In this document: positions 2,494 through 38,265 of the stretch, one piece after another
How the letters are laid out: every line of letters begins with the position of its first letter
Numbering within the stretch: the stretch's first letter is position 1
From: a virus
IMG/VR virus record: IMGVR_UViG_3300025812_000003
DNA length: 64,000 bases
Reading direction: 5' to 3' (one strand)
The notes under the pieces: model-generated
Database searches by the model: none
What the model saw: the letters and a program-made list of their open reading frames with translations, nothing else
What the model was told of the DNA's origin: nothing
Position numbers and translations under genes: made by a program

Positions 2494-3098
2494 GCCAAGC
2501 ACCCGCATCGGTGGACCCGTTCGACATCTCCGGGCGGATGACCCGCCAGCAGCTCGAATGGTGGATACTGTTCGGCATATGCGTGGCGGGGAAGCGGGCC
2601 GACCAGACGGAGGCGAAGCTGGACGCGTTCCTGGCCGACATGCCGGTGCCGAGGGCCAGCGGGAACCAGTCCGTGCCCCTGTTTTCCACCCCGTTCGCTC
2701 GGGTCAGGTACCTGATGTCCGAGGGCAAGCTGCTCCAGAGGCTCAGGAAGCACCGGCTCGGCAAGTACTCCCTGCTGCGCAGGGCGTTCCCCGCCGCCGT
2801 GGGGCTGGACCTGGACGCCCTGTGGGTCGAGTCGCTGGAGCAAGTGCCGGGCATCGGCCCCAAGACCGCCAGGATGATCCTGCTCTACTCCAGGCCCGAC
2901 GCCTCCGTGGTGCCGCTGGACACCCATGTCCTGAAGTGGCTGCGGTCCCAGGGGTACGACGCCCCCAAGGCCACGCCCACGGGACGGCGGTACCTCGAAC
3001 TGGAGAAGGCGTTCGTCGACGAGGCCAGGCGGCGGGAAAAGACCGTGCGCCAGCTCGACACCGAGGTCTGGCAGCAGTATGCCAGGAAGGGGATGTAG
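2490..3098 (+). CDS. HhH-GPD DNA glycosylase/lyase (Ogg-like)
   Basis: HhH motif LEQVPGIGPKTARMIL and LDTHVLKW; ATGA overlap with the upstream stop. Confidence 0.8.
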   Translation: MSQAPASVDPFDISGRMTRQQLEWWILFGICVAGKRADQTEAKLDAFLADMPVPRASGNQSVPLFSTPFARVRYLMSEGKLLQRLRKHRLGKYSLLRRAFPAAVGLDLDALWVESLEQVPGIGPKTARMILLYSRPDASVVPLDTHVLKWLRSQGYDAPKATPTGRRYLELEKAFVDEARRREKTVRQLDTEVWQQYARKGM

Positions 3099-3099
3099 C

Positions 3100-3318
3100 A
3101 TGGGCCAGACGCCCAGCAGGAAGGACCACGAGGACGTCCTGGAGGGCCTCCGCTGGAGGGCCGACACGGTCGTCGAGAACTACGAGGGCGAGAGGGTGTG
3201 GCTCAGGCCCTGCCTCGACGGCCTCGGCAGGAGGATCGGCATCACCGACTGCTGCCGCGAGGACGACCCGTGCGGACGGCACGGGCGCATCCGGGCGGGC
3301 ACGGGAGGGGGAAAATGA
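3100..3318 (+). CDS. hypothetical protein
   Basis: ATG 2 nt after the previous stop, operon packing, GC3-biased codons. Confidence 0.6.
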   Translation: MGQTPSRKDHEDVLEGLRWRADTVVENYEGERVWLRPCLDGLGRRIGITDCCREDDPCGRHGRIRAGTGGGK

Positions 3319-3797
3319 ACCAGCGCCTCTCGGCCCGGGACCGCATCCCCTTCCGCCCCGCCAGCTCGTCGTCCCTGTTCAGGCATCCCCGCCATGCCCG
3401 ATGGTCCTGCATAGCCAAGGTTTCGTACAATTCCGGGGAAAGCGCCCTGGCCGCCATCAGGGCCCTGGAGGAAAGGCCGCTCTTCGGGCTTGAGGCGTAC
3501 GAATGCCCGTCCTGCGGGAAGGTCCACGTCGGGCATGGGGATGCCTACAAGGCCGCCATGATGTTCGCAAAGGACTGCGAGGCCCTGGTCGCCAGGTTCG
3601 CCGGGGCGAAGGGCGACGCGCTCGGTGCGGCCAGGCGGATGGTCGTCAGCGCGTACTTCGACGTGAGGTCCAGGCTCGGAAGGATGAGGGCGGGCGTCTC
3701 CGGGGACAGGGCGGAGAGGCTCGCCCGCAGCCTGGAGCACCTCGAAAGGGTGAAGGTGCAGGCCATGGTGAGGCTCGCCGCCGCCAAGGAGTATTAA
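3315..3797 (+). CDS. hypothetical protein with CxxC..H motif
   Basis: GGAGGGGG RBS, ATGA overlap, AYECPSCGKVHVGH. Confidence 0.65.
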   Translation: MNQRLSARDRIPFRPASSSSLFRHPRHARWSCIAKVSYNSGESALAAIRALEERPLFGLEAYECPSCGKVHVGHGDAYKAAMMFAKDCEALVARFAGAKGDALGAARRMVVSAYFDVRSRLGRMRAGVSGDRAERLARSLEHLERVKVQAMVRLAAAKEY

Positions 3798-3827
3798 GGA
3801 ATGACAGGCTAGCGAACGCTGGTCTGC

Positions 3828-4337
3828 ATGGAGGATGCGACGATGGCAAAGGAACTCCGCAAGAAGCTGGCTAAGGATGCGATGGAGGAGCTCAGCAGCG
3901 CCCTGGACGACTTCGTCAAGTACGTCAAGGTCCCCGGCCAGATAAGGTTCCCCATCGAGGTGTCCTCCGTGCGGACCCTCGAAGGCCAGAGGCCCGGGGC
4001 CCCCGCCGTCGGCTCCTGGTGCAGCGTCCGCCCGTGCCAGGACGACAAGACCTACCTCGGGGTATACCTCGGCGACCTGACCGTCTCCGTGGACCACTAC
4101 TACCACACCCGCGAGAAGGTGCTCACCATCGCCCCCCATGCCAACCCGGCGCTCTACGTGCCTGACCTGAAGCGCGTCGTGTGGGGCTGCGAGTCCTGGT
4201 GGGGGACCATCGAGGGCCCCGAGCATCTCCGCCAGATCACCGACGCCGACATCCAGGACCTGTGGTACGTGAAGGCGCTGAAGGACCTCGCCGGGAAGCC
4301 GGCCGAAGGAGGTGCCGAGTGCCCGAGAGAAGGCTGA
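3828..4337 (+). CDS. conserved phage hypothetical protein
   Basis: TYLGVYLGDL..NPALYVPDLKRVVWGCESWWG..ITDADI pattern familiar from phage hypothetical proteins; start may be 3843. Confidence 0.75.
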   Translation: MEDATMAKELRKKLAKDAMEELSSALDDFVKYVKVPGQIRFPIEVSSVRTLEGQRPGAPAVGSWCSVRPCQDDKTYLGVYLGDLTVSVDHYYHTREKVLTIAPHANPALYVPDLKRVVWGCESWWGTIEGPEHLRQITDADIQDLWYVKALKDLAGKPAEGGAECPREG

Positions 4338-5178
4338 GACATGGATCCCTTTTCTCGGGCATTCGACCGGGATGATCGACTACGGCCTGGAGATGGCGGG
4401 GTTCGAGACCGCCTTCCAGGTCGAGATAGACCCGTTCTGCCGCAAGGTGCTGGAGAAGTACTGGCCGGACGTGCCAAGATTCGAGGACGTGAGGAAATGT
4501 GGACGACACAACCTTGAGCCCGTCGACCTCCTCAGCGGAGGCTACCCCTGCCAGGACCACAGCATCGCTGGGAAGAAGCGGGGGCTTGGGACTCCGGACA
4601 ATCCCACCGAGCGGAGCGGCCTCTGGTTCGAGTACAGCCGCATCATCCGAGAGCTACGACCTCGCTGGATACTCGTTGAGAACGTTTCTCGTCTCCTGCG
4701 CACGGAGGACGGGGACAGGGTGCTCTCCGACCTGGAGGGAGCTGGCTACGCCTGCTGGCCGCTCGTATTGGACGTGGAAGTCCTCGACGCCCCGCACATC
4801 CGCGAAAGGACATGGCTCGTCTGCCGGGAATGGGCTTCCCCTGTTCCCGTTGGTCAGTACCCCGACGACGAAGGCGATCCTGGTCATGGAATGGTCGAGG
4901 GAGAACTTCATTCAGCAGCGGAACGGGCGCTGGCGGAAACGCGCAAACAGTGGCAAGACAGGAAGCATGAATTGGCTCCAGGAAATGGCGGTGAGGGCGG
5001 TGGTGCAGCGGAACCCGAGGCTTGTGCCTACGCCGGAGTTGTGCGAGCAGTATATGGCTATCCCCGTTGGATGGACCGATATCGAGCCTGCGGGAACAGC
5101 GTCAACTTCGTCGTCCCCGCCCTTGTCGGGCAGTGGATCGCACGGGTCGAGGGAAGGAGGGAACATGGGCAAGCATGA
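4319..5178 (+). pseudogene. C5 cytosine DNA methyltransferase alpha chain, frameshifted just after motif I
   Basis: GTG 4319 with AGGAGG RBS gives RHGSLFSGI (motif I), then a stop at 4375. GMIDYGLE, EID, GGYPCQ, ENV, RER and motif X (ACGNSV) continue in the 4312 frame. Confidence 0.75.
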
Positions 5179-5551
5179 CGGGGAGAGGATTCCGGTGGAG
5201 GCGGCGCTGAAGCTGGACGAGGAGACAAAGGCCCCTGGGGCCGAGGACGGGGGGACGATAAGCGAGGTCGACGCCGAGGTGCTGTTCTTCCTGGGCGACA
5301 GGGCCGACGAGGCGGCACGCGGCGTGGAGGAAGCGACCCGGCATGTCAAGGCGGCCGAGCAGGAGCTCGAAATAGCGAAGGAAGATGTCAAGGCCGCCGA
5401 GCGCAGGGTCCTGGAGGTCCAGAAGGTGACGGACGAGTTCACCAAGTCCGCCATCCGCAGGGCGGGGTTCGACCCGACTCTCTTCAAATTGTGTGAAAGG
5501 AAGATAGTTAAGAGAATCTTAAAATCCACTACACCGTCAGGTCCCTTGTGA
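4499..5551 (+). CDS. Overlapping-frame beta chain of the C5 methyltransferase (motif IX), running in frame into the next gene
   Basis: GAGGA..GTG start; RLVPTPELCEQYMAIPVGWTD matches C5-MTase motif IX, which is missing from the alpha frame. Confidence 0.6.
   Translation: MDDTTLSPSTSSAEATPARTTASLGRSGGLGLRTIPPSGAASGSSTAASSESYDLAGYSLRTFLVSCARRTGTGCSPTWRELATPAGRSYWTWKSSTPRTSAKGHGSSAGNGLPLFPLVSTPTTKAILVMEWSRENFIQQRNGRWRKRANSGKTGSMNWLQEMAVRAVVQRNPRLVPTPELCEQYMAIPVGWTDIEPAGTASTSSSPPLSGSGSHGSREGGNMGKHDGERIPVEAALKLDEETKAPGAEDGGTISEVDAEVLFFLGDRADEAARGVEEATRHVKAAEQELEIAKEDVKAAERRVLEVQKVTDEFTKSAIRRAGFDPTLFKLCERKIVKRILKSTTPSGPL
5165..5551 (+). CDS. hypothetical coiled-coil protein
   Basis: Own GGAGG RBS before ATG 5165; heptad-like E/K/A-rich segment. 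Confidence 0.65.
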   Translation: MGKHDGERIPVEAALKLDEETKAPGAEDGGTISEVDAEVLFFLGDRADEAARGVEEATRHVKAAEQELEIAKEDVKAAERRVLEVQKVTDEFTKSAIRRAGFDPTLFKLCERKIVKRILKSTTPSGPL

Positions 5552-5581
5552 GCGCCTGGAGTCCCCACCTCACCTTTGCTC

Positions 5582-6031
5582 TCATGTAGGAATGGAAGTG
5601 TGCTCGGACGGGCGCTGACCTGGTCGAATCTTGGAAAACGTCGAGTACATCGCCACCGCATCCTCTAAGCCCTCGTCCAGGAAGTCCGCGAACATGTCCG
5701 CCACTTCCTTCGCCCAAGCGTCCTTGCCCTTGGCCAGCGTGGCAAACCCTATATCTTTGTCGGCCTCGTCTACTGCCTCCCTGATTTCGTCCGGATACCT
5801 GGTCAAGTACTCGCCGAGGGTCTGGGGCAGGACGAACCCCGGTTCGGGGTCCTCGTCCCACACCACCTTGAGGTCCGCCAGCCAAGCATGGTCCTCGTCG
5901 ATCAGGGGCATCGTCTCCGGCGGTGCGACGGGCACCGGCCCGGGATGGGGGTCCTCCAGCACACAGGGTGCTATACCTACTTTCAAAAGGAATCCACTGT
6001 CGTCCAAGCCCATAGGCCATTTCCGTATCAT
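5582..6031 (-). CDS. hypothetical acidic protein downstream of the CRISPR array
   Basis: GGAGG RBS before ATG 6031 and a GGTATACT -10-like element at 6047-6054. Confidence 0.7.
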   Translation of the reverse strand: MIRKWPMGLDDSGFLLKVGIAPCVLEDPHPGPVPVAPPETMPLIDEDHAWLADLKVVWDEDPEPGFVLPQTLGEYLTRYPDEIREAVDEADKDIGFATLAKGKDAWAKEVADMFADFLDEGLEDAVAMYSTFSKIRPGQRPSEHTSIPT

Positions 6032-6135
6032 GCGTCCTCCAGTTGTAGTATACCTCGGTGTATTCTGATATTTCAAGGATTCTTGAAATTTCGTTCATCC
6101 CCTGTTTTACCCTTGTGCGAACGGGTGAGGTTAGT

Positions 6136-7694
6136 ATTTCATCTACCCAATGAACTAGCGTGGTCTTTTGCCACTCCCATGCTGACAAGGGTCTGCTTTC
6201 GATTTCATCTACCCGATGAACTAGATGGTCTTACCCATCCGGGAAGCTAAGGTTTCATCTGCCCGATGAACTGGAATGGTCTCCACATGGGCTGTCGGGC
6301 GCAGCCTTGCGGCTTCCGTTTCATCTATCCGATGAACTGGGATGGTCTCCGTCACTTTGGGGGCGACGCAGCCACTCAAACACGTTTCATCTACTCGATG
6401 AACTGAAGTGATTTCCACCAGCGTGTCACAGGCTGTTGCACGCCACGAAATTTCATCTACCCGATGAACTGGAATGACCTTTACCTTACCGCTAGCAGCA
6501 TTCGTTTCATCTACCCGATGAACTAGGGTGATCTTCACCGATTGGGGAACTCTGAACTATCCACCTGGAGTTTCATCTACCCGATGAACTGAGACGGTCC
6601 CCACCGAGTGAATCCTTCGCCAACAGCCCTCAACTGTTTCATCTATTCAATGAACTGAGGTGGTTTCCATTGGAGCAGGCGCAAGCATTCGTCAAATTTC
6701 ATCTATCCGATGAACTGGAGTGGTCCGTACTGAACAGCAAGGTCATGGTTTCATCTACCCGATGAACTGAGGTGATTTTTGCTGCAGCGTGAATTCTCTG
6801 GACTTTCATCTATTCAATGAACTGGGGTGGTTTTCGCCACAGCGTGAATCCCATGGACATGGACATGGTTTCATCTACTCGATGAACTGGGGTGGTCTTA
6901 TTAAATGGAGAAACGGTGCCACGAGCTTGAAGAGTTTCATCTGCCCGATGAACTGGGGTGGTCTCCACCACGATGGCGTGCTCGCATCGCCGGTACGTGG
7001 TTTCATCTACTCGATGAACTAGGGTGGTCTTCACCGATTGAGGAACTCTGGACTATCCACCTGGAGTTTCATCTACCCGATGAACTAGGGGAGTCTTCAC
7101 CGAGTCCGCTGTTCTAACCAACCGAGCTATGGTTTCACCTATCCGATGAACTAGGGTGGTCTTCACCTGCTCTTCGAGTTCTTCCCCCGGATGAGCTGTT
7201 TCACCTATTCGATGAACTAGGGTGGTCTTCACCAATCGGCAGGCAGTTGACATTTCCCAAGGAGTTTCATCTATCCGATGAACTAGGGTGGTCTTTACCT
7301 TTACACCATTGACCACTGGTCGATCTGCGTTTCACCTATCCGATGAACTAAGGTGGTCTTCACCTTGGCCCCGTGTATCCCGTGGGCCCTATCGGTTTCA
7401 CCTATCCGATGAACTAAGGTGGTCTTCACCTGCAGGCCATCCGGCTGGAACTCGGGCGGCGTTTCACCTATCCGATGAACTAAGGTGGTCTTCACCAGGG
7501 ACGTTGTCGAGGTTCTTGTTCGAGTGGTTTCACCTATCCGATGAACTAAGGTGGTCTTCACCATCCCGTGGTGTCGACGGCAATCGAGTTGTGTTTCACC
7601 TATCCGATGAACTAAGGTGGTCTTCACCGACGGTCGCCGCCGCCGTGGGCGTCGCCGTGTTTCATCTACCCGATGAACTAGGGTGGTCTTCACC
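6136..7694 (-). CRISPR. CRISPR array, 25 repeats / 24 spacers; repeat (RNA sense) GGTGAAGACCACC(C/T)TAGTTCATCGG(G/A)TAG(A/G)TGAAAC
   Basis: Repeat starts on + at 6136, 6202, 6252, 6318, 6384, 6450, 6504, 6570, 6636, 6696, 6748, 6803, 6868, 6934, 7000, 7066, 7132, 7198, 7264, 7329, 7395, 7461, 7527, 7593, 7659. Mostly a 66-nt period (36+30). Ends GAAAC on the minus strand; degenerate toward 6136. Confidence 0.97.
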
Positions 7695-7741
7695 CGATTC
7701 CTTTTAGCATAGTGTAGACGCTGGACTTAGCCTCGAACTTG

Positions 7742-7800
7742 CCTCAAAAAAACGACCATTGGAGGCCCCGCCGCAGGGCGGGACCTCCAATTTTTTGAGG
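7742..7800. terminator. Long hairpin between the cas operon and the array (possible bidirectional terminator or accessory RNA)
   Basis: Nested pairs cctcaaaaaa/ttttttgagg, ttggagg/cctccaa and cccgcc/ggcggg; T-runs on both strands. Confidence 0.6.
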
Positions 7801-7899
7801 AGGAGGACAAAGGCACAATTATGCGGCCTTTTCAAGTTGTCAAAGAACGCTTGACCGTCCACCGCCCTTTGGCGGCTGGCCCCACTTCCGAGAGTCGTT

Positions 7900-8208
7900 C
7901 TATGCAAAGGCTACGTCGCTTGCGTTGACGTGCCAATCGCCCTTTTTGAGCTTGCCGTCCGGGGTATTCCTGACCTGCCGGTATACCGTGGCCCCGCTTC
8001 CATCCTCGACCTTGAATTCGGAGAATACCCGGTGGCGGGCCTTTACCTCCACCAGCTTCTCCCCACCCTTGTGGCTTCTCGGGAAGACCAAGTACGTCCC
8101 GAACTTCGTTTCGACTATGCGGGGCTTCCCTTCGAACAGGATCGTCCCGGCGACCGTTTTGAGGAACTGAATGCCCTTCTTTACTTCAATGATGAATTTC
8201 GACTTCAT
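7900..8208 (-). CDS. small basic beta-rich protein, last gene of the cas operon
   Basis: GGAGG RBS, ATGA overlap with the helicase stop; no recognisable motif. Confidence 0.75.
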   Translation of the reverse strand: MKSKFIIEVKKGIQFLKTVAGTILFEGKPRIVETKFGTYLVFPRSHKGGEKLVEVKARHRVFSEFKVEDGSGATVYRQVRNTPDGKLKKGDWHVNASDVAFA

Positions 8209-11200
8209 TGGTGCCTCCTTTGAATTTTACTTCGTTTTTTACTGCCCGCTTCCAATTTCTTTCTTGCCACGATCTCCATCATTCCCGTCCCCGGCAGGGC
8301 CTGGGATTCCACGATCAGCCCGGCCTTTTCAAGCAGGGCGTCCAACCCCCTCACCCACCGCCTGCCGTGGGGCTCCCGGATCACCGCCATCCCCCCGGGG
8401 GCCAGTAGCCTCGCCATCTCCAATACCGAATTTCTCCGGTTCTTGGCGAACATGGAGAGGCAGCTCACGATCAAGTCAAACGAGCTGTCCCCGTATCCCG
8501 TGGCGTTCCTATCCCTCGCCTCCACCTCCGGGAACCTCTGGCATGCCTGCTTGGACAGGAAGGGATCGGCGAAGGAGATGCCGTCCAGTCCCAGCCTGTA
8601 GGCCTCGGCGGGGCCCGTGGTCCCGCAGCCGATGTCCAGGATGCGCCTGCCTGTGGTTGGCAGGACGTAGTTGAGGTACACGTCTCTGACGTTCCCGTTT
8701 CTCCCCTCGAATTCCTCGTTCTCCCGTTCGTAGTCAGGCAGGAATATCATTTCCTTCCCCCTTGCAAGGAAGTCTCCCTCCCTTCTGGCCAGAAGCTTGG
8801 CGGAATCGGAGTTCGAGTAGAGGTTGTGCGTCCTGTCCGTCAGGCGGTGCAGGAGGGCCCAGAATTTCTTGTCTTGGGGCTCGGCGCTTCCTGCCGGGGC
8901 ATCTTCAAGGGGAATGGACATCCCGGCCAGTTTCCTTTGGTTGTCCAGCATCTTCCTGACTTCCGCTTCCGGCACCTCCCTGCGCAGCTCTCGGGGAACG
9001 TCTGCGTTCATGACCAGGAAGTGCGTCTTCTTCCTGCCCAGCACCCTCCCGTTGCGGTTGTGGCTATACGGAATGTTGTCCGCCACGAAGTTGACTATCA
9101 GCACGCCGCCTTCCATGAACGCCGAGTCGGGGCGCACGATCCTCCGGGCGAACTGCTCCAGTTGGGCATAGTGCCAGGGCATCCCGAAGATGAACTCCAT
9201 GTCGGAAATTTTGTGGATTCCGTCTATCCCCGTCGTCATTGGGGCGCTCGCCACGATGACGCACTTCGGGTCCCTTTCCATCATGTCGAGCTGTTTGAGT
9301 TCCCCGGTATAGAGGTATGCCCTTCTTCCCAGCTTTTTCCTCGCCCATCCCGCCAGCAGCGCCACAGGACCGTCTACGAAATGGGTATAGAGGATGGGCC
9401 TCGACGCCTTCCGGAGGAGCCGCATCAGCAGTGGGCTGTCCTCTATTTCTTTGAGCGCCCCCTTGATGAGCACGCATTCCGCCTGCGGCGTCGGCTTGGT
9501 GGTCCTCGGGAGCGAGGACAGTAGGGATTCGCCCAGCAGGTAATGAGTGGTGGTGATTCTGGTCCCCACGGAGTCCGCACCATCCTCTTGCCCGTGCTGC
9601 TCGAATACCAGCGTTCCAGTGGGCTTCCAGTCGACGGCTTTCGGCGGGGGGAGGAGGGAGGGCCGGATGTAGAACCGCGATCCCCTGGACAGGGTTTCGT
9701 ACCGGAGCTTGAGGGCCGCCGAGGCATCGTCGTCCATGGATGTATACTTCTTTCCGGTGAATAGTTCCAGCATCCTATATGCCTCCCTCAGGCTTATCCT
9801 CATGAGAGTGGCGGTCATGAGATAGAACAGGCATTCGGGCGGCATGCTCTTACGCAGGAACGAGAGGTTCCTGAACCGGTTTCCTTCCTTCTTTCTCTCC
9901 GCAAGCAGGGCCTCGTCCAGGCCCTTGCTTCCCGTCCAGTTTTGGAGCTCGTCCACCACCATCATGTCCCATCCTATGGCGGCAAGCCGCTTCACCAGCC
10001 CATCCGGATTGTTCTGCACGTCATATTCGGACACGAACACGTAGTTCCTTTTCCCCTCTTCCATGCCCTCCAGATCGTCGCAGTCCGTGAACAGGAAATT
10101 GGCATCTCCCTCCCCGACGATTCTGGCGTGCGCCTCCCACTGCCTCGTCCTTTCCCTTCCCCTCTCCCTGTTCGTGAATTTGTCCAGCGTGGACTTGGTG
10201 GCCAGCACCAGGACGTTCCGGAATTCGTGTTCCATGGCCAGGGCGAACACGGTGCGGCTCTTTCCTATTCCTGGCTCCCCGAGGTTGAACAGGATGCGGT
10301 CCCGTTTCAGGGCCTCGAAGGATTTCCAGACGATGTGGGCTACCATCCAGTCCCCGTGGTATCTCCTCACGTATCTTTCGGCCCCCTCCCATTCTCTCAG
10401 AAAGCTGTCCCGGAACATTGGAACTGCTTCCTTCATCCCTTTCTTCAGGAGCTTCGTCCCCCCATGGCTCAGGGCCTTCCAGAGAAGGGAGATGTGGTCG
10501 ATCTCCGAGGCCCTGACGAATTCCTGGTTGGACCAGAACCCCTCCAGGGTTTCCGCTGCCTTCCTGAGTTCCCTCAGGCGTTCCAGGATGCACCCGTCCG
10601 TAGTGATCCCGGGGGCCTCGCAGCTCCTTGCCGTTCCCTTCCTCGGTCCCGATGGGTCGTTGACCAGCGCCGCTGCCTCCTCGGGGCTCATCGAGAGCAG
10701 GAGGTCCACGCATTCGTTCTTTCCCACCTTCCATCTCCTGCTCAGGGCCGCAAGGAACCCGTCGAGCGCCAGCAGCCTGATGAGGTCGGCCGGATTCTTT
10801 CCGTGCAACATGTGCCCCAGGGTAAGAATCTTTTCCGCCATCTCCTCCACCGACCAGCACGGCACCCCGAAAAGGTCGGTCCATCCTTCCCAGTTCGGGT
10901 ACGTTGTCGGGTCCTTGGGGGATCCTGGGGGCAGCATGCCCTTCTGCAGGAGCCATCCGTACCTCTCGGTCGGGAGTTCCGAGATTTCTTCGAGCCCCGC
11001 TGTCTGCCCGAGGCCCTTTGTCGCCTTCCTTAGCTCCTCCAGCGTGACGAGGTCCACCGACTGGAGGAGGCACCGGGAGGACAGGAAATTGGAGTCGTCG
11101 GAAAGGTAGCGATCCGTGGCGTCGGCGTCGTGCAGGCAATTCTTCTCCCCGCACGGGCACTGCACGCCGTAGAGCACCTCGACCCGCCCATCAGGAACGG

Positions 11201-11321
11201 GGATTGACCGGGGGCCGGTCGTGATGAGGAGAGTCCCCCGCCTGTCTCCCCCCTTGAAATGTCTCGGGGAGACGAACGAGTTTCCGACCAACCTTGGCAG
11301 CGGGGATATCGTCAGTCCCAT
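8205..11321 (-). CDS. SF2 helicase fused to a C-terminal class I SAM-dependent methyltransferase (CRISPR-associated)
   Basis: Walker A GEPGIGKS, Walker B MVVDELQ, motif III MTAT, motif V TTGIDG, motif VI QFARRIVR. MTase motifs ILDIGCG and DSSFDLIVSCLSM..EMARLLAPGG. N-terminal P..P..YPNWEGWTDLFG unit. Start uncertain (ATG 11321, TTG 11342 or downstream). Confidence 0.85.
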   Translation of the reverse strand: MGLTISPLPRLVGNSFVSPRHFKGGDRRGTLLITTGPRSIPVPDGRVEVLYGVQCPCGEKNCLHDADATDRYLSDDSNFLSSRCLLQSVDLVTLEELRKATKGLGQTAGLEEISELPTERYGWLLQKGMLPPGSPKDPTTYPNWEGWTDLFGVPCWSVEEMAEKILTLGHMLHGKNPADLIRLLALDGFLAALSRRWKVGKNECVDLLLSMSPEEAAALVNDPSGPRKGTARSCEAPGITTDGCILERLRELRKAAETLEGFWSNQEFVRASEIDHISLLWKALSHGGTKLLKKGMKEAVPMFRDSFLREWEGAERYVRRYHGDWMVAHIVWKSFEALKRDRILFNLGEPGIGKSRTVFALAMEHEFRNVLVLATKSTLDKFTNRERGRERTRQWEAHARIVGEGDANFLFTDCDDLEGMEEGKRNYVFVSEYDVQNNPDGLVKRLAAIGWDMMVVDELQNWTGSKGLDEALLAERKKEGNRFRNLSFLRKSMPPECLFYLMTATLMRISLREAYRMLELFTGKKYTSMDDDASAALKLRYETLSRGSRFYIRPSLLPPPKAVDWKPTGTLVFEQHGQEDGADSVGTRITTTHYLLGESLLSSLPRTTKPTPQAECVLIKGALKEIEDSPLLMRLLRKASRPILYTHFVDGPVALLAGWARKKLGRRAYLYTGELKQLDMMERDPKCVIVASAPMTTGIDGIHKISDMEFIFGMPWHYAQLEQFARRIVRPDSAFMEGGVLIVNFVADNIPYSHNRNGRVLGRKKTHFLVMNADVPRELRREVPEAEVRKMLDNQRKLAGMSIPLEDAPAGSAEPQDKKFWALLHRLTDRTHNLYSNSDSAKLLARREGDFLARGKEMIFLPDYERENEEFEGRNGNVRDVYLNYVLPTTGRRILDIGCGTTGPAEAYRLGLDGISFADPFLSKQACQRFPEVEARDRNATGYGDSSFDLIVSCLSMFAKNRRNSVLEMARLLAPGGMAVIREPHGRRWVRGLDALLEKAGLIVESQALPGTGMMEIVARKKLEAGSKKRSKIQRRHQ

Positions 11322-11368
11322 TAGTTTGTTTCGCCCATGCAACGAATCAGGCGACCCTTTGTCCGCCG

Positions 11369-13921
11369 TCAGGCGCTTGTGGCGGCGGCCAGATTCTTAG
11401 CTGCATTCTCCGTCTTCTTGAAGCGTGCGTGACAGTTGGGGCATTCGAGCCTGTTGTTCTTCGTGACGCCGAATGCGCCGAAGTAGCCGCAGGAGTTGCA
11501 CGTCTGTACGACTTCGAGCGACGCCGCTTTCGTGACTGCGACCTCCACCCCGTGATTCCGTCCGATGTTTCTGAGGATGGCGGTGAAGTCCCCCAGGGCC
11601 AGCCGCTGCCTGTATTCGTGGAACATTTCCGTCTTCTTGGACTTTTCCCGGCTTTCCCCGATCCCCTTGACGTCCATGTTCTTGATTACGACCTTCCCGT
11701 AACCATTGTCCGCCAGCGTCTGCATGATCAGCGTGCAGACCTTCTCGTACTCCTTCTCGCGGCGACCGGTAATGCGCCCGCTGATGAAGTTGAACAGCTC
11801 TCCGGCCTTGGCGTCCTCGGTCGCCCATTTCACGATTGCCGCCCTGGCCTCGGGATGCGCCGCCATGAGGATGTCGTCCTTGAGCAGGCTTTTGATGCCC
11901 GAGGAACGGCTTCTTTTGAGCCAGGGAGGAACATCGTCGCCCAGCTCCTCCATGAGGTGTTCTTTGAGGCGATCCTCGCAGAGGTCCCGCTCGGCCTGCA
12001 TCTCCTTCTTGTACTCGAACGTGTCGGTTTCCTTCTTGCCATGCTCCCGGTTCCGCCTGCCCCACCGAGTTTCGCCCAGTTCGGCCACGAAGGGCTCGGG
12101 GTCGAAGGAGAAGAGCCTGACGCCTGTTTCCTTCTCGGTCACGATGCGCATGTTTAGCATCTTCGAGGAGGCCGCGTCCAGGACGTCCATCTTGCTTTCG
12201 AAGTCAGAGGCGCTCTCGGTCCCCCCTTCCGGCAGGCCGCTGGAAGCAAGCCACTTGCCCGTCATGCCGCTCCATTCGGCAGCCGATAGGAAACTATGTC
12301 GCAGCTCGGGGCGCTCGCCGAGGACGCCCGCGACGGCGTATGCCAGCATCGGGGGCCTCGGGTTCATGTTTGCGAAGATCGCCATCGTCCTGCCTTCGGC
12401 GGGAAGGCTCAGGGTGCCGATCTGTGCCAGGTTCTCCCTGGTGCTCCATCGCAGGTCGAGGCCTGCGGTGCTCCCCTTCACGGGCGCAGGGGCGGGCAGC
12501 TCCAGCGATAGGGAGAGCGAAATCCTCCCCGTCCTTTCCTTGAAGGAAAGCCACCATTTCTTGATGTAATGGCTTCCGGCCTTCTCCCCGAGGTTCGACG
12601 TTATTAGGACCCCCACGGTAAAGGGCTTCAGGCCCTTTCCGCCGGAGAATGTCAGGGGACGTAGCTGCCGGTTTCTCCAGCGCTTTCCCCGGCCCTTGCC
12701 CGCCTCCTCGTGCCCGCTGTCCTGGGGGTCTACGGGAGGGCCCAGCGTCAGGCCTAGTACTTCCTGGCCCGCAAGGAAGCTTCGTATGGTGGTGGCCTCC
12801 GAGTTCCCTTGCTTGTTGCGGTTGGCAAGGGTGATGTTTCCGCTTTTCTCGTCCTCCTCGTAGCGCAGCTTCGGGAGCCCCTTCCATGGCTTCTCGTCGT
12901 TGGTTATGCGCTGCTTCAAGGTGCATTTGATGTTCTCGAACACGACGTCCCGCTCCGGCAGGGAGGAGAACATCTGCCGGACCCCGTCCAGGCTGGGGGC
13001 CTTGTTCGGCCGCTGCTTCCATCCTTCCTTGTCGTCGAACACCATCTCCCTGAGCGGATATTTCCCTGCGCGCACGTCCGGGTCGTTGCGCCAGCATTCG
13101 TCCCAGTGGTTGATCATGCGGAAGAGCGGGGTGAAGTCGGTGGGATATTGGGCGAGGAACTTGTCAATCTCCTCCAAGAGGCCTTCGGGCACGGGATGCT
13201 CGTGCTTCTTGTCGTGCCGCAGGTTGCTGGCAACCATCCGCAAGGAGACAGCGGACAAATCCGTCTTCGCCTTTTCGCTGAGCTCGTTCTTGTAGGAGAA
13301 CTTCCGGCCCTTGCCTTGACGCATGTTGAACTGGTCGAGGACCTCGACCACGTGAGTGGCGAATGTCCCGAGTTCCACGGCCGGGATGCTCTGCGTGCAT
13401 GCCCGAAGGGCTTCCTTGAACATGTACGCCATGTGCTGCCTTGCCTTTCTGACCCTCGTCTTGACGCCTTCTAGCCACGCTGGAATCTCACTGGTGGCTA
13501 TGCCCACATGGTGTAGGTAGATGGGCATCAGCCAACCCTTCGATATGGAGGTCGAATCTCTTTTTATCCCTGTGTTTCCGGAGATCACGAAGACGGTTTC
13601 GGGATGCTTCTTGGTCGCCACTCGCTGCTTGAAGGTCGCCAGGCGTTGGCACGCCTTTCCGTTGACCATGTAGGGCGTCTCGGAGGCATAGAGGACGATC
13701 TCGATCTGTTGCCCGGCTTCAACCATCCCGTCCATCGCCACGGGGGAGTCGAGCACGGCCCTGTTCCTCCCGCTACCGATGGACAATTTATGTGTTTTCG
13801 GGAAAAACGCAATGGTTCCCGATGAAAATTGTCTGGACTTCGACCTATCTATTCGGTCGGCATGCAGTCGGAGTTCCGTCCCGTCCCATGTCACCTTCGT
13901 CCATTCCGCCTTTTTGAGCAT
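11369..13921 (-). CDS. cas12: Type V (TnpB/Cas12-family) effector, ~850 aa, predicted nuclease-inactive RuvC
   Basis: RuvC-I AGLDLRW, bridge helix GRREKEYEKV, RuvC-II region VVIKNMD, zinc finger CNSC..CPNC, C-terminal TENAAKNL (cf. DxNAAxNI). GGGAGG RBS before ATG 13921. Co-oriented with the CRISPR array. Confidence 0.85.
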   Translation of the reverse strand: MLKKAEWTKVTWDGTELRLHADRIDRSKSRQFSSGTIAFFPKTHKLSIGSGRNRAVLDSPVAMDGMVEAGQQIEIVLYASETPYMVNGKACQRLATFKQRVATKKHPETVFVISGNTGIKRDSTSISKGWLMPIYLHHVGIATSEIPAWLEGVKTRVRKARQHMAYMFKEALRACTQSIPAVELGTFATHVVEVLDQFNMRQGKGRKFSYKNELSEKAKTDLSAVSLRMVASNLRHDKKHEHPVPEGLLEEIDKFLAQYPTDFTPLFRMINHWDECWRNDPDVRAGKYPLREMVFDDKEGWKQRPNKAPSLDGVRQMFSSLPERDVVFENIKCTLKQRITNDEKPWKGLPKLRYEEDEKSGNITLANRNKQGNSEATTIRSFLAGQEVLGLTLGPPVDPQDSGHEEAGKGRGKRWRNRQLRPLTFSGGKGLKPFTVGVLITSNLGEKAGSHYIKKWWLSFKERTGRISLSLSLELPAPAPVKGSTAGLDLRWSTRENLAQIGTLSLPAEGRTMAIFANMNPRPPMLAYAVAGVLGERPELRHSFLSAAEWSGMTGKWLASSGLPEGGTESASDFESKMDVLDAASSKMLNMRIVTEKETGVRLFSFDPEPFVAELGETRWGRRNREHGKKETDTFEYKKEMQAERDLCEDRLKEHLMEELGDDVPPWLKRSRSSGIKSLLKDDILMAAHPEARAAIVKWATEDAKAGELFNFISGRITGRREKEYEKVCTLIMQTLADNGYGKVVIKNMDVKGIGESREKSKKTEMFHEYRQRLALGDFTAILRNIGRNHGVEVAVTKAASLEVVQTCNSCGYFGAFGVTKNNRLECPNCHARFKKTENAAKNLAAATSA

Positions 13922-14018
13922 ATGTATCCTCCCGTCCTTACTATACACCGTTGGACGAGCAATTTTCGGGAATTTTTCAAGTTTTTCGGTATACTATCAT
14001 CTGGGGTAGGGAGGCGGC
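13922..14018. promoter_or_regulatory. Divergent AT-rich promoter region
   Basis: TATAGT on minus (13940-13945) toward cas12 and GGTATACT on plus (13988-13995) toward 14019; both genes have a GGAGG RBS. Confidence 0.55.
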
Positions 14019-14369
14019 ATGCCAATCAAGCCGAGGACTTGCAGGAAATGCACGAAGAACTTCGTACTGATGCCCGGGAAGCCCGGCAACGCCAACGACT
14101 GCCCATCGTGCTCCGGGGAGGACGTCCCCCTGGTGATGGCGAAGGTGAGCTGGGAGGGCAAGCACTGCATGATCCTGGAGATCACCGCCGACAGGGCGGA
14201 GGCGGAGCGGTTCAACCGTGCCCAGGCCAGGGGCGGCATGGGCCCGCTGTCGGCGATGTGCGGGAGCGGCGAGGACAAGGACGGCCAGGAGGCGTCGAAG
14301 CAGAGGACGGGGGCGGGGGTCGGGGACCTCTACCGGTCGAGGCTCAACGAAAAAAGAAGGGTCAAATAG
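14019..14369 (+). CDS. small zinc-ribbon protein
   Basis: CRKC..CPSC; GGGAGG RBS. Confidence 0.7.
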   Translation: MPIKPRTCRKCTKNFVLMPGKPGNANDCPSCSGEDVPLVMAKVSWEGKHCMILEITADRAEAERFNRAQARGGMGPLSAMCGSGEDKDGQEASKQRTGAGVGDLYRSRLNEKRRVK

Positions 14370-14682: not shown

Positions 14683-15288
14683 TTAAGCTGTGGTCGCATT
14701 GAAAACCCTCACTGCTTTGTGCTCTCTCATGGTTCGGATGCACTTTCCGATTTCGACCCATTCGTCGTAAGAAAACAGGTTGGACTTTCCTCGATTACAG
14801 CGAGTACAACAGACAACCACATTGTCCTTGGTATAGCCTTTCAGGTTGTCTTTGCGATCAAGGTAGTAGGCTTGTCGATGTCCTGGGGATCTCAAATGGA
14901 TGTTGTGCTTAGTCCATATGATGGGCACATCGCAATAATGACACTTGTTTATCCTTGTGAACTCCAGAAAATCTTCGTAGGTTATGTCAGTTCCCTTTCC
15001 CGGAACCTTGCAGACATAGAGAAAGCTGCTGTAAAGGGACTCATATGGGCGTTTTCGTGTCAGTTTCGACACATTCTCCCTTCTATAGCATCCGCAACTG
15101 ATGGTATTTCTCCTGTGGTTTCCGTGAAGATTGCCAATGGGTACGGTCACTACATTCCCGCAATCGCATAGGCATTCCCAAGTTACGGGCTTGTAGGAAA
15201 CCACCTTTACGGGCCGCAACCTCCCGATCCTTTCCTTTGATAGATCAAGGATGGTTTTACGACCCTTCAAGTCCTTTAGTTTCTCCAT
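14683..15288 (-). CDS. free-standing HNH homing endonuclease
   Basis: WECLCDCGN..SCGC N-terminus, CHYC, LDRKDNLKGYTKDNVVVCCTRCNRGK; low GC. Confidence 0.88.
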   Translation of the reverse strand: MEKLKDLKGRKTILDLSKERIGRLRPVKVVSYKPVTWECLCDCGNVVTVPIGNLHGNHRRNTISCGCYRRENVSKLTRKRPYESLYSSFLYVCKVPGKGTDITYEDFLEFTRINKCHYCDVPIIWTKHNIHLRSPGHRQAYYLDRKDNLKGYTKDNVVVCCTRCNRGKSNLFSYDEWVEIGKCIRTMREHKAVRVFNATTA

Positions 15289-15289
15289 T

Positions 15290-17659
15290 TTATTTAATGT
15301 CAGAATCCCTGACTCCAGTAATGAAACGATACTTCAGGAGTAGAGATTCACTGTCCAAGCTCTCGGCCCTAACAAATACCTCATACACAAATCCTCCATT
15401 TAGGGTGCTATTCCAGACAGCACTTTGCGCCCACGAATCGTTGATGCAACTTTGAATTTCGCTGTCGTTCAGCTTGTCCACCAGGTGCTTTACCCGGCTG
15501 CCCATCCCCTCCTGGCCCATGAGCAGGCCCGACATGCCGGAGAAGTCCCGCTGCTCCACCTGGTCGAGCTGGAGGGAGCCGGTCCCCGGCACCTTGTCCA
15601 GCGGCGGCCGGCTGGTCACCTTCCATGCGCTGATGAACGTGGCCGCCACCTCCGCCATGACCTTCTTGAGGAACGCCCCGAACTGCTCCTTCTCGCCCCC
15701 GAACGCCGCCGCCTGCTTGGCGACCACGTTCATCGCCCCGCCCTCAGGGCCCATGTCGAAGTTCTGGTAGAATTCCTCCTGGAACATCGGGCCCCTGATC
15801 TCGTCCTCAGTCCGGAACGGCTTGCCTTCGAGCACCTGCGGCTTGAAGTCCCTGCCGAGGCCGACCGCCCCCGGGGAGGTGCTGACGTAGCCCAGCTTCT
15901 TCATCCCGTCAAAGGACGCCTCGATGGCGATGTCGAGCTCGGGGTCCTCGTGCGGGTCCCCGACGATCCCCCCTATCGTGGACTCGTTCGTCCCCTTGGC
16001 GACGTCCACCCCGGAATCTACCATGGGGGCGTTCGTGGCGTTGGGGGAGTCCACCAGCTCGTGCTGGAGGTCCGGATAGAATTCCCTGAGCGCCTGGCCG
16101 GGAAAAAAGAAGTTGAAGCCCGCCTCCTTCCCCGCCTTCCCGTCCTTGCGGACGTCCTTTTTCGACGCGACGACCCCGCCCTCCGTTGGCCCCATTTCCC
16201 TTTCCTTCGTCCCCCCGGAGTCGAACTGCACGGTCCCGCCCCTGGCCAGCGTCTCCACCGGGTCCTCGACCTGGTAGTTCTGGTGCCAGTAGACGTTCCC
16301 GTCCGGGTCGCTGATGATGGGGGCGTCGGTCAGCGCCCCGAGGTCCTCGGGGGCCTCCCATCTCCAGCCATTTTCCGTGGCCTCCGCCAGCAGGTGGTGC
16401 AGGGCGTCGACGGTCGCCTCGTTCGCGAGGGATGCCGCCAGCCTCTGACCCTCGTCCGTGGCGGACACCTGGAGGCGTCCGTAGCCGTCCGTGGACAGGG
16501 TCACCAGCCGCCCCGTGAACCCCATATCCTCGGGCAGGTGCTCTTTGACGTCGTCGAGCGCCCCGCCCTCGCCTTCGGGCCTCATGGCCCATTCCTCCAG
16601 CTTGTCCGTGTCCGCCGTCTTGAGCCCCTCGGGCTTCTCCCCGTCGATGTAGCTCTTGTCGGAGGTGACGGCGACGGAGCCCGGGGCGGAGAAGTCCGGC
16701 CCCCACTTCTCGGCCGCGGCCTTGATGAAAGCCTCCGCCGTCTCGGGGGACGAGAAGCTCGCCTCCCGCTTCTTGCCCTTGAGCACGAACTCGACCTTGT
16801 TGTCCTTTGCCATTTTCTTCTCCCTATTAGACTGATGGAAAGCGAAAAGCTCGTCTTCCTCCGCCCCGGCAAGAAGTTCCAATGCCCTCTGACGGGATAC
16901 CTTTTGCGGGGGCTCGTGCAGGCCGTCCCATATTTTTTCGTATTCCGTTTGATGCACTTTGCCTTTCATGAAATTACGAGGCAGGTTGTTGTTTATGACC
17001 AATGTTTTTACATCCACGATATCCTGGCCTCGTACCTGCAATTTGATTTCGGCACCCTTGTAGCTGCCCATAAAGCTCCCTATCTTCAAATCCAACAAGG
17101 TGGGCAAATCGCAAACTTTCGGTTCCGTGTTGATTTCCTGCGGTATGGGGTTGGGAACGTCAGTCCCTTTTATCTTCCATCCGCCTTGGATTATGTCTAT
17201 CTTCACGTTGTTTTCGGGGTCCGAAACTGCTATCGGATTGAGAATCTTATACCCATTCTGGATCAGGATGTACCTCGCTTGCCTGGCATTCGACACGGAC
17301 AAGTCGATGTCCTCGGTGTTGCGGGCATATCCGTGCTCTTGCACGGCAATTGCCCCCACGACCAGGGTGCCCACGCCGTTGGTTCCGAGGATTTTGACGA
17401 CCTTGTTCAAGGCATCTTCCTTGTTACCACTGAATTTCCGTATATGCACGGCCTCTTTGTGGTTGAATCCCGGCTGCGACACATTATCGGCCATGGAAGC
17501 CACTTGTTCCTTTTCGTCGTCCGCCAGCCGCATCCACGGACGGTCGAAGAAATCCACTGGGAACCTGTGGCTTTGCGTCCTCAGCCATCCGATACGAAGG
17601 TGGCCTAGCTTCAGGCCGTCCCATCGCCTTCCGACCTCCGTGTTGTCGATGGCATCCAT
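15290..17659 (-). CDS. Modular protein: N-terminal nucleotidyltransferase-like domain in frame with an acidic putative virion-associated protein (second start at 16813)
   Basis: VVGAIAVQEHGYARNTEDIDL NTase motif. GAGGA RBS before ATG 17659 and GGGAG RBS before ATG 16813, with no stop between them. Confidence 0.7.
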   Translation of the reverse strand: MDAIDNTEVGRRWDGLKLGHLRIGWLRTQSHRFPVDFFDRPWMRLADDEKEQVASMADNVSQPGFNHKEAVHIRKFSGNKEDALNKVVKILGTNGVGTLVVGAIAVQEHGYARNTEDIDLSVSNARQARYILIQNGYKILNPIAVSDPENNVKIDIIQGGWKIKGTDVPNPIPQEINTEPKVCDLPTLLDLKIGSFMGSYKGAEIKLQVRGQDIVDVKTLVINNNLPRNFMKGKVHQTEYEKIWDGLHEPPQKVSRQRALELLAGAEEDELFAFHQSNREKKMAKDNKVEFVLKGKKREASFSSPETAEAFIKAAAEKWGPDFSAPGSVAVTSDKSYIDGEKPEGLKTADTDKLEEWAMRPEGEGGALDDVKEHLPEDMGFTGRLVTLSTDGYGRLQVSATDEGQRLAASLANEATVDALHHLLAEATENGWRWEAPEDLGALTDAPIISDPDGNVYWHQNYQVEDPVETLARGGTVQFDSGGTKEREMGPTEGGVVASKKDVRKDGKAGKEAGFNFFFPGQALREFYPDLQHELVDSPNATNAPMVDSGVDVAKGTNESTIGGIVGDPHEDPELDIAIEASFDGMKKLGYVSTSPGAVGLGRDFKPQVLEGKPFRTEDEIRGPMFQEEFYQNFDMGPEGGAMNVVAKQAAAFGGEKEQFGAFLKKVMAEVAATFISAWKVTSRPPLDKVPGTGSLQLDQVEQRDFSGMSGLLMGQEGMGSRVKHLVDKLNDSEIQSCINDSWAQSAVWNSTLNGGFVYEVFVRAESLDSESLLLKYRFITGVRDSDIK

Positions 17660-17667
17660 CCGTTTCC

Positions 17668-18669
17668 TCAGGGCTCCGCCCCCTCGAAGTCCCTCAGCCT
17701 CGGGAACTCCTTCTGGAGGTCCTTCCATGCCAGCTCCGCCGCCTCGTCGTCGCTCTTCCCCTCGTCCACGTAGAACAAGGCGAAGTCCTATGCGTGCTCC
17801 TCCTCGGGGGTCAGCTTGACCAGCCTGCCGCCGGGGGCGCTTCCCGCCGCCCCGCCTTCGTCGGGCCCGATGGTCCCGAGGATCTTGACCTCCCCGGGGG
17901 CTCCCTTCCTCTTCGTGTCGGCGCATTCCTGGCAGAGCCTGGACTCGATGCCGAGCGCCTCCACCAGCACGGCGGCGGGATGCGGGCATTCCCCCGCGGC
18001 ATGCCGCAGGACGCACGCGCCCTCCTCGCAGCCGCATTTTTCCGGCCCGCCGGAAGCGGGTCGCGGGCCTCCGAAGTCGGCAAGGACCGACAAATAGGTC
18101 AGCCCGGTGCTGGCCTTGATGCCCATCTCCTTCATGAACCGCTTGTCGAAGCTGTTTTCCACCGGCATCCCCTCCCCCCTGGGCGCTTCCCTTTTTTCTT
18201 CCCTCACTGCCCTGTCCTGGGTTTCAGTCTCGTCCAACCAGTTCTCGGCTATCTCGGCCCAGTTCGGTTCCGTCCAGGGCTCCAGCCATCCCGACTGCCC
18301 GCCCATGTCGCTGCGGATGAGGTCCATCGCCTCGGCGAGGACGTCCCCCGCCCGGCTTCCCGTGCTCGGGGGCTTCTTTCCCTCGATCTGCCTGGCCTCG
18401 AACTCCCCGGACTCCGTCCGGGCCTCCAGGGCGTTCTCCTCGTATTCCCGCTTGGCCTGGTCCCTGATGCCCCTGAAGCGCTCGGCGAATTTCCTGGCGC
18501 AAAGGTTGACGATGCCCTGTTTCGGAAGGCCCCTCGACGCCCCCGACGCCATGGCGTGCCGGACGCCCAGCATGGCCGCGTCGTGGGTCGAGCGGCTGTT
18601 CCCGATCAGCAGGTTGACGTACCAGGTCTGCCAGTCCGTCCAGCCTTCAAAGTCGGCCTTCTTGAGCAT
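17668..18669 (-). CDS. hypothetical modular protein with an in-frame TAG at 17788-17790
   Basis: After the TAG the frame continues 39 coding-like codons (DFALFYVDEG..EFPRLRDFEGAEP) to TGA 17668, 8 nt before the next ATG. Confidence 0.65.
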
Positions 18670-37957: not shown

Positions 37958-38265
37958 ACTTCGAAGCCATCATGTTCCGCGACGACCAGGTCCCCGAGGA
38001 CTACGACCTGGGCGAGCCGCCATCAGAACTATTGGCTCCTTTGGAAGGGGGATGGGACGGGGGTTGCGACGTGGGCATCTTTGACTTCCTGGAGGACGAG
38101 GAAGAACTGGACGACTCGGAGCCGACGGGCCACGAGGAGAGGGACGACGACTACCTCCTGGAGGAACTCGAAGTCGGCGAGGACGGGCACATCGTAGGGC
38201 ACCGGAAGCGGAAGAAGAAAGAGGAAGAGGCGGAAGACTCGGTATTTTGTTGGTGGGATGAATGA
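37954..38265 (+). CDS. highly acidic hypothetical protein
   Basis: GTGA overlap; D/E-rich. Confidence 0.6.
   Translation: MNFEAIMFRDDQVPEDYDLGEPPSELLAPLEGGWDGGCDVGIFDFLEDEEELDDSEPTGHEERDDDYLLEELEVGEDGHIVGHRKRKKKEEEAEDSVFCWWDE

Follow-up and report, generated by a model that had tools for sequence, protein, structure and literature searches.

Within a 64,000-nucleotide (nt) stretch of the IMG/VR virus record IMGVR_UViG_3300025812_000003, analysed here at its full length and called the window, a phage-borne type V CRISPR locus was characterized. Its effector belongs, by profile comparison, to a Cas12m-like family and has lost two of the three RuvC catalytic residues. We consider it probable, from comparison with known systems, that the effector acts by CRISPR RNA (crRNA)-guided binding that blocks the transcription or replication of competitors and does not involve cutting. 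The effector gene is followed by a gene for a superfamily 2 (SF2) helicase fused to an S-adenosylmethionine (SAM)-methyltransferase and by a gene for a protein of 102 amino acids (aa). A highly divergent, doubly inactivated effector within a Cas12m-like lineage is new, as is the architecture of the locus; a categorically new subtype would follow only if coupling between the effector and these accessory genes were shown.

Architecture of the locus

Three minus-strand open reading frames (ORFs) lie head to tail and form, together with a CRISPR array, a single co-oriented block on the phage. This order had been described in the initial annotation, and its coordinates proved correct:

13921-11369, minus strand: effector gene (P0004), 850 aa; ATG start at 13921, preceded seven bases upstream by the ribosome site GGGAGG; the longest ORF extends to 13948
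11321-8205, minus strand: helicase-methyltransferase gene (P0005), 1038 aa; an alternative TTG start at 11342 gives 1045 aa
8208-7900, minus strand: gene for the 102-aa protein (P0003), with an ATGA overlap with the helicase-methyltransferase gene
7791-7758, minus strand: terminator-like hairpin and T-run, 15 pairs, GC-rich, between the 102-aa gene and the array; closes the three-gene unit
7757-7695, minus strand: array leader, about 63 nt between the hairpin and the first repeat
7694-6136, minus strand: CRISPR array, 25 repeats of 36 nt and 24 spacers, about 3.7 kb downstream of the effector on the same strand
13922-14018: AT-rich divergent intergenic region of 97 nt upstream of the effector

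The effector stop and the helicase start are 26-47 nt apart, depending on the start codon, and a site scan found no terminator-like or promoter-like site between these two genes. Upstream of the effector, the same kind of scan placed a promoter-like site at 14025-13996 (minus strand), and inspection of the sequence suggests that the effector promoter probably lies in the AT-rich region, beyond which a zinc-ribbon ORF (14019-14369) runs in the opposite direction. With this divergent region on one side and the hairpin terminator on the other, the three-gene block is bounded on both sides.

The absence of an adaptation module, also noted initially, was supported by tblastn, in which neither the window nor a further 55 kb of the same virus gave a homologue of cas1, cas2 or cas4. 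General Pfam and PHROGs scans, covering 59 larger ORFs from the window together with the extended virus record, found no transposase besides a weak TnpB-type match of the effector itself; the earlier statement that a transposition module is missing agrees with these general scans, no dedicated tnsB, tnsC or tniQ queries having been run.

The effector is a divergent Cas12m-like protein with two RuvC residues replaced

Single-sequence comparisons placed the effector only loosely. Pfam gave a sub-threshold match to Cas12f1-like_TNB (4.6e-4), and PADLOC matched residues 633-846 to Cas12u1 (1.7e-11) and Cas12f (6.6e-11). A word-indexed protein search with the effector returned only the effector itself, and tblastn against GenBank phages gave no match. 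At E ≤ 1e-3, a HMMER search of 1.84 billion proteins yielded 53 rows, one of them the query; 29 rows passed E ≤ 1e-10, and the best non-self value was 1.5e-37. The full-length relatives found in this way are 692-854 aa long and 27-30% identical to the effector over the matched stretches. When a profile built from the effector and 18 relatives was compared with the PDB, the best matches were Cas12m structures (23vw_A, 1.4e-33; UnCas12m4a, 9.4e-27; Cas12m2, 2.8e-17), and TnpB and Cas12f structures ranked behind them. What matches is the RuvC half together with a small part of the N-terminal half, and the comparison is a ranking of PDB entries. By this measure the effector is a divergent member of a Cas12m-like family and not an entirely new kind of type V effector.

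For the alignment of catalytic motifs, 29 relatives were used, of which 17 came from HMMER and 12 were translated from fetched loci. The RuvC I, II and III segments of the effector and its CxxC...CxxC zinc ribbon align with these relatives and with the Cas12m and TnpB structures, as is characteristic of type V effectors. Most relatives keep the catalytic residues: RuvC I carries D or E in 26 of the 29, RuvC II carries E in 25 and RuvC III carries D in 28. The corresponding segments of the window effector read AGLD(489)LRW, VVIK(747)NMD and KKT(837)ENAAKN, so that D489 is kept, K747 stands at the position of the RuvC II Glu and T837 at that of the RuvC III Asp, and the canonical D-E-D triad has become D-K-T. 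Because this departure is of the same kind as in the accepted subtypes V-K and V-M, it does not exclude the effector from type V. The earlier description of the protein as nuclease-dead thus agrees with the alignment at two of the three positions, and cleavage by the canonical two-metal route would not be expected with Lys and Thr replacing two metal ligands.

The window effector is the only member of the alignment in which both the second and the third RuvC residues are replaced. Losses of other kinds occur in P0051 and P0058 (H..Q..D), in P0049 (N..P/K..D), in P0033 (S at RuvC II) and in the relative from locus L139 (N at RuvC III). The alignment indicates that catalytic residues, although retained in most of the family, were lost on several independent occasions, namely in the window protein, in P0051 together with P0058, and in P0049. 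In a FastTree phylogeny of 729 trimmed columns, midpoint-rooted and read without support values, the window effector sits on the longest terminal branch (1.72). An AlphaFold2 model built from the alignment of relatives reached a mean predicted local distance difference test (pLDDT) score of 71.6 and a predicted template modelling score of 0.54, with a confident C-terminal RuvC half. Residues 524-608, about 85 residues after RuvC I, form an insertion that has no counterpart in the relatives and is modelled with low confidence.

Related loci carry arrays and adaptation genes

Fifteen loci of relatives were compared, comprising seven viral loci from IMG/VR, obtained with an alignment of seven relatives, and eight from Acidobacteriaceae genome bins, two partial. 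An array was found downstream of the effector in six of the seven viral loci when L130, a near-copy of L129, is counted, and in five when it is left out; in L134 the k-mer detector found none. The array directly follows the effector, beginning 60-330 nt after it, in L129, L130, L132 and L133. Two loci have adaptation genes between effector and array, cas4 then cas1 in L131 and cas4, cas1 and cas2 in that order in L135, all recognized by Pfam with E values of 1e-23 to 1e-95.

The eight genome-bin loci (Terracidiphilus, Acidobacteriaceae) have ordinary chromosomal neighbours such as AcrB, CcmF and GGDEF proteins, and in L136, L137 and L139 the effector is closely followed by a short array or by one or two hairpin motifs that resemble a repeat. 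The arrays downstream of the effector in the viral loci, the cas4 and cas1 (and cas2) genes between effector and array in L131 and L135, and the covarying repeat hairpin described below together identify the family as a true family of CRISPR effectors.

Searches of IMG/VR for further loci with the H-Q-D relatives P0051 and P0058 found none, and locus searches with P0029 and P0038 gave nothing new. In L132 a second short array with the same repeat (1753-2070) lies upstream of the effector; spacers 1 and 2 of this array are almost the same. The effector relative in L136 adjoins an IS91-type transposase.

The repeats share a putative crRNA hairpin

The array was mapped by a script searching for the repeat consensus, and the same array was seen by Tandem Repeats Finder and by a general repeat search. 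The 36-nt consensus is GGTGAAGACCACCTTAGTTCATCGGATAGGTGAAAC. Spacers are mostly 30 nt long, but seven in the decayed leader-distal part measure 14-24 nt. Repeats 2-6, at the gene-proximal end, are mutually identical, and distal repeats carry up to 13 mismatches. This decay falls nearly all within the 5' 15 nt, the 3' 21 nt (AGTTCATCGGRTAGRTGAAAC) being almost unchanged. Spacers 10 and 18 (6540-6569 and 7036-7065) and their flanking repeats are 90% identical copies (6504-6609 versus 7000-7105), the product of an old duplication inside the array.

Repeats of the viral relatives are 37 nt long and end in AGTGCAYN...RTGCAAC; the window repeat differs from them in the stem, where G:C is replaced by U:A, and in its 5' half. 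When the repeats of five relatives and two window repeats were compared, the 6-bp stem before the terminal AC was paired in all 42 cells (seven sequences, six pairs), and three of the six pairs showed compensatory changes. The covariation score was reached by 1 of 500 shuffles, and slid controls paired at 21-48%. Covariation among seven related sequences is supportive, not proof, of a crRNA hairpin common to the effector family. No anti-repeat, that is, no complement to the repeat resembling a trans-activating crRNA (tracrRNA), was found elsewhere in the window, which fits a tracrRNA-free crRNA with a 5' handle. The presence of an adjacent array whose repeat matches the effector family is likewise typical of a type V locus. 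Ahead of the first repeat, the leader contains GTTCGAG at a distance of about 43 nt and TATGCT at about 15 nt; the leaders of L129, L131, L132 and L135 carry GGTTCGCG or GGTTAGCG at a similar distance, a weak resemblance judged by eye and unscored.

The repeat pattern had no match in IMG/VR. A looser pattern was found at at least 121 loci in metagenomes, with 37 of 64 parts scanned, and among the matches listed all were single chance matches apart from L048, L119 and the two-match chance locus L050. L048 is a 1027-bp contig with a sister array that has spacers 7, 8 and 12 in common with the window and carries 13 others. As its spacer set differs, spacer content turns over between strains, though no adaptation genes are present; recombination or a host Cas1-Cas2 acting in trans could account for this.

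A silencing mechanism is proposed for the effector

In the mechanism that we propose, the array would be transcribed from its own leader into a pre-crRNA, and the effector would bind the 3' hairpin of the repeat as the 5' handle of the crRNA, as in tracrRNA-free type V systems. The complex would then bind protospacers in the DNA of rival phages and, once bound, would act as a roadblock that silences transcription or replication without cutting, as shown for Cas12m. In Cas12m2, an HDD site is described as holding one metal ion, with no cleavage, and silencing as the result of tight binding (PMC10442227); Cas12m is described as acting by binding, without a helicase (PMC10442227, PMC11013384).

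The spacers offer one hint as to the targets. Over 22 of 23 nt, spacer 5 matches a site inside a collagen-like tail-fibre gene of the phage itself (20903-25 of G001, a longer virus record that overlaps the window and is described below). The flanks are unlike, and weaker echoes of the match occur in neighbouring collagen repeats. The simplest reading would be that spacer 5 was acquired from the homologous gene of a related phage, and the match, from one spacer only, points to competition between phages.

Several observations speak against this mechanism. No spacer has a full self-target in the window and G001, the best match of the spacers to GenBank phages has an E value of 2 and is thus at chance level, and the core pattern of spacer 5 had no match in one scan of IMG/VR. 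No full-match protospacer that would define the target and the protospacer adjacent motif (PAM) was found. Among the 24 sequencing runs listed, no RNA run contains the locus. Finally, D489 is kept and the array is long, so residual or other activity of the effector is possible.

The helicase-methyltransferase and the 102-aa protein form one module

P0005 consists of an N-terminal Cys-bearing region (aa 1-330), an SF2 helicase core (about 331-790) and a class I SAM-methyltransferase domain (about 881-1038). Its motifs comprise Walker A GEPGIGKS at 348, VVDELQ at 455 (DExQ), TAT at 502, TTGIDG at 696, QFARRIVR at 723 (motif VI) and GCGT at 895. The helicase part matches PHROG 62 'DNA helicase' over aa 349-532, and its match to DinG in PADLOC has an E value of only 0.0077. 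The methyltransferase part matches Methyltransf_8, 11 and 25, and the closest relatives of solved structure or in NCBIfam act on small molecules. It showed neither the DPPY/NPPY-type or C5 catalytic motif nor the match to DNA N6-adenine or C5-cytosine families by which a DNA methyltransferase would be recognized. Its sole defence-related match is to the methyltransferase domain of MADS mad2 (5e-6, PADLOC). The 'translocating DNA methyltransferase' of the initial annotation is therefore a conjecture, since the Methyltransf_8/11 matches are of the small-molecule or RNA type.

A tblastn search of 50,697 GenBank phage records with the fusion gave no match, and no related locus was found for the module in IMG/VR or in GTDB genomes. 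In the word-indexed search the full P0005 sequence found only itself, and words from residues 330-1038 found P0082, a protein of 1128 aa encoded on a 141,335-bp contig. P0082 is 35% identical to P0005 across its whole length, including the Cys-bearing N-terminus, and keeps all helicase and methyltransferase motifs. Its residues 1031-1126 are homologous to the 102-aa protein (52% identity, E 2e-30). As the two window genes overlap by ATGA and form one polypeptide in P0082, we read the helicase-methyltransferase and the 102-aa protein as one functional module, the firmest new result on the accessory genes that sequence comparison provides.

The 102-aa protein matched no family in Pfam, PHROGs or PADLOC. 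Its AlphaFold2 model is all-beta with ten strands; of the five models, two reach a pLDDT of 84.9 and three only about 31. A weak NCBIfam match of aa 5-38 to an archaeal-type single-stranded DNA-binding protein (E 0.006) is a weak lead. Two candidates were ruled out as they showed no similarity, namely the 102-aa protein as a degenerate Cas2 and the helicase N-terminus as a Cas1 or Cas4.

Coupling of the module to the effector is tentative

Functional coupling of the module to the effector has, in our estimate, somewhat less than an even chance, and its support is positional. The genes are co-oriented and separated by the short gap given above, a strong terminator follows the 102-aa gene with none between effector and helicase, and the array keeps its own leader. 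The module also occupies the slot between effector and leader that is held in L131 and L135 by cas4 and cas1, together with cas2 in L135. In addition, the sole family member that has lost two residues in this way is also the sole one with an adjoining helicase, helicase and methyltransferase keep their catalytic motifs in a relative of 35% identity, and the unit is identical in four of four compared runs from 2014-2020.

Against coupling stands the distribution of the module. The initial annotation had named in advance, as its test, whether homologues of the effector neighbour the helicase-methyltransferase, and the outcome was negative: by tblastn with P0005, P0003 and P0082, neither the helicase-methyltransferase nor the 102-aa protein had a homologue in any of the 15 relative loci, and the module was likewise missing when five whole virus records of relatives, including one of 99% completeness, were searched in six frames. 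The association is therefore seen in a single lineage, and a helicase conserved beside the effector across the family, as expected for helicase-assisted interference, was not found. The nearest cluster in the ESM Atlas, a lead and not an alignment, combines ResIII, Helicase_C and Methyltransf_8 in 1498 members from bacteria and Uroviricota (score 0.95, 218 shared features), which suggests that the module has a job of its own. Moreover, on three contigs of the same phage the helicase gene is called as two ORFs (1-214 and 302-1038; 1-813 and 858-1038; 49-946 and 950-1038), reflecting either real frame breaks and decay or assembly errors.

These observations are also what would be expected if the module were an independent phage cassette that modifies or protects phage nucleic acid, or counters host defence, and that landed between effector and array, leaving the CRISPR part alone as a Cas12m-like silencer. 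We regard this as very nearly an even proposition. Besides the absence of the module from all 15 loci and five records, it is favoured by the array directly following the effector in four of the seven viral loci (L129, its near-copy L130, L132 and L133), by the widespread stand-alone function that the Atlas cluster of bacterial and phage proteins implies, by the separate terminator of the module and leader of the array, and by the description of Cas12m as requiring no partner (PMC10442227). However, an independent cassette would not by itself explain why neither promoter-like site nor terminator separates it from the effector, why it sits exactly in the cas-gene slot of the relatives, or why the sole double catalytic loss in the family coincides with the sole helicase neighbour, and the lack of a match in the GenBank phage records argues that the fusion is not a common phage gene in recognisable form.

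If the module is instead coupled to the silencing effector, it may be co-transcribed behind it and loaded at the R-loop, extending the effect by ATP-driven translocation and methylation in the manner of CasDinG or Cas3; by analogy with those systems we advance this tentatively. A more specific version is unlikely: that the effector swapped cutting for a recruited motor-methyltransferase, the R-loop loading the SF2 helicase through the 102-aa beta domain onto the displaced strand and an Rrp8-like methyltransferase marking the unwound nucleic acid. Were it true, chemical modification or silencing would be guided by RNA without nucleolysis, and the system would be a new type V subtype.

Comparison with known systems

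Cas12m proteins are about 600 aa long, carry a non-canonical RuvC, bind DNA without cleavage and use a 5'-TTN-type PAM. They are the best relatives of the family profile in the structural database, at 1.4e-33 to 2.8e-17 (Cas12m2, PDB 8hio/8hhl; 23vw, 'DNA-binding protein Cas12m'), and the window locus resembles them in its single effector, its tracrRNA-free array and its non-canonical RuvC. Binding without cutting, which is predicted for the window effector, has been shown for Cas12m (PMC10442227), and carriage on mobile elements is common to both (PMC11656645). In contrast to Cas12m, the window effector has 850 aa and a D-K-T instead of an H-D-D triad, is about 21-27% identical even to its own family, and contains the low-confidence insertion of about 85 residues after RuvC I; furthermore, its locus lies on a large phage and encloses a helicase-methyltransferase module. 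The myxophage protein MvCas12m (10.64898/2026.09.14.751636) was considered as the same protein and ruled out, as it is described with 610 aa and an intact triad.

In the closest published pairings, Cas12m is accompanied by Cas3, Cas12a2 by UvrD, and a phage dCas9 by an SNF2 helicase (PMC10910872). No type V effector with a helicase-methyltransferase was reported in the literature searched, consistent with the initial annotation, which knew of no such subtype; supplementary locus catalogues lie outside this scope and could hold one. The loci of Cas12m with Cas3 and type IV-A CasDinG are alike in having a non-cutting surveillance module beside an SF2 helicase (PMC10910872, PMC11656645). Unlike in those systems, the window helicase is unrelated to Cas3 and DinG, a SAM-methyltransferase stands in place of an HD or HNH nuclease, and the association is seen in one lineage.

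Phage II-C2 Cas9 with a dead RuvC offers a further parallel, being a phage-encoded, partly inactivated RNA-guided effector with an SNF2 helicase as neighbour (PMC10910872, PMC12669027). It is described as having no array and is read as an anti-CRISPR, whereas the window locus combines a 25-repeat array with a type V effector. The parallel raises the alternative that the window effector is itself a decoy, soaking up crRNAs of a host Cas12m-like system with no targets of its own, as proposed for the phage dCas9 (PMC10910872). Effector relatives with similar repeats do occur on the chromosomes of Acidobacteriaceae and Terracidiphilus bins, the likely hosts. Nevertheless, we judge a decoy highly improbable: the window locus keeps its repeats and leader, its repeat differs from those of the relatives in the stem and the 5' half, and no host array with the window repeat was found, the only contigs with such an array among the metagenome matches listed being the phage-array contigs L048 and L119.

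TldR is a nuclease-dead TnpB-type repressor, in which the RuvC catalytic residues have been replaced and the protein reused as an RNA-guided binder. In Cas12k, too, RuvC activity was lost by point replacement and the protein was reused in this way (PMC11656645). The window locus differs from both in taking its guides from an array and not from a single fixed guide. No Tn7-like genes were found near it in the general scans, which included no dedicated tns queries, and neither PADLOC nor the PDB profile search showed sequence affinity to Cas12k or TldR.

RNA-guided proteins that bind but do not cut occur in nature and provide the starting material for programmable repressors, base editors and epigenome editors. 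If such a binder were indeed paired with a motor-methyltransferase, RNA-guided methylation would for the first time be seen in a native system, and CRISPR interference without a nuclease would have a new explanation. What is new even without coupling is a clear instance from nature in which other genes have taken the place of an adaptation module, a lineage that reaches large peat-soil phages, and the repeated independent loss of catalytic residues within one family.

Distribution and stability of the phage

The virus record G001 (95,171 bp, CheckV completeness 53%) matches 23763-64000 of the window at 100% identity, the match ending at the window end, and adds two collagen-like tail-fibre genes, an RIIA homologue and an ORF of 3880 aa. 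Contigs that encode the three locus proteins at more than 99% identity number about 64-76, come from four sources and reach 250,145 bp. Twenty DNA runs from peat, wetland and soil (2014-2020) contain at least 98% of the sampled words of the locus, and the contigs of the four runs compared are identical over 5900-14100. These data extend the Cas12m-like lineage to large peat-soil phages. Acidobacteriaceae are the likely hosts of such phages, and the chromosomal effector relatives in Terracidiphilus and Acidobacteriaceae bins offer a sequence-based lead to the host of this one.

An alternative reading is that the locus is a decaying remnant, with a dead effector and a frozen array under no selection. 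In keeping with this, two catalytic residues are lost, an adaptation module is missing, distal repeats and spacers are degenerate and shortened, the array did not change in four runs over six years, and the helicase gene is split on three contigs. Such decay is nonetheless improbable. The ORFs are intact over 850, 1038 and 102 codons, and full-length effectors in the cluster on about 70 contigs differ by 1-3 substitutions with no frame break. The effector retains its zinc-ribbon cysteines and elements of the RuvC fold, the crRNA-handle half is conserved even in the degenerate repeats, and the different spacer set of L048 shows turnover. In run X16, one contig matches only 12577-13918 of the effector gene, with 255 unlike letters beyond both ends; it may be a recombinant or a related element with the N-terminal half of the effector.

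Elsewhere on the same phage, separate genes encode an SNF2-family helicase (38258-40231, plus strand; PF00176, 3.8e-20), a DNA methyltransferase (44135-44818, plus strand; PHROG 359, 3.7e-42) and a 776-aa protein with a type II methyltransferase-like C-terminus (163-2493, plus strand), so the CRISPR locus is not the only place on this phage with helicase and methylase genes. An HNH endonuclease gene (14683-15288, minus strand; PHROG 374, 1.7e-15) lies immediately upstream of the divergent promoter region, on the strand of the CRISPR unit, and further upstream is the gene for a 915-aa protein with no family match (15290-18037, minus strand). The 3880-aa ORF of G001 (121-11763, plus strand), which lies beyond the window and is unassigned in role, has patchy PHROG matches that include a weak RNA 2'-phosphotransferase-like stretch.

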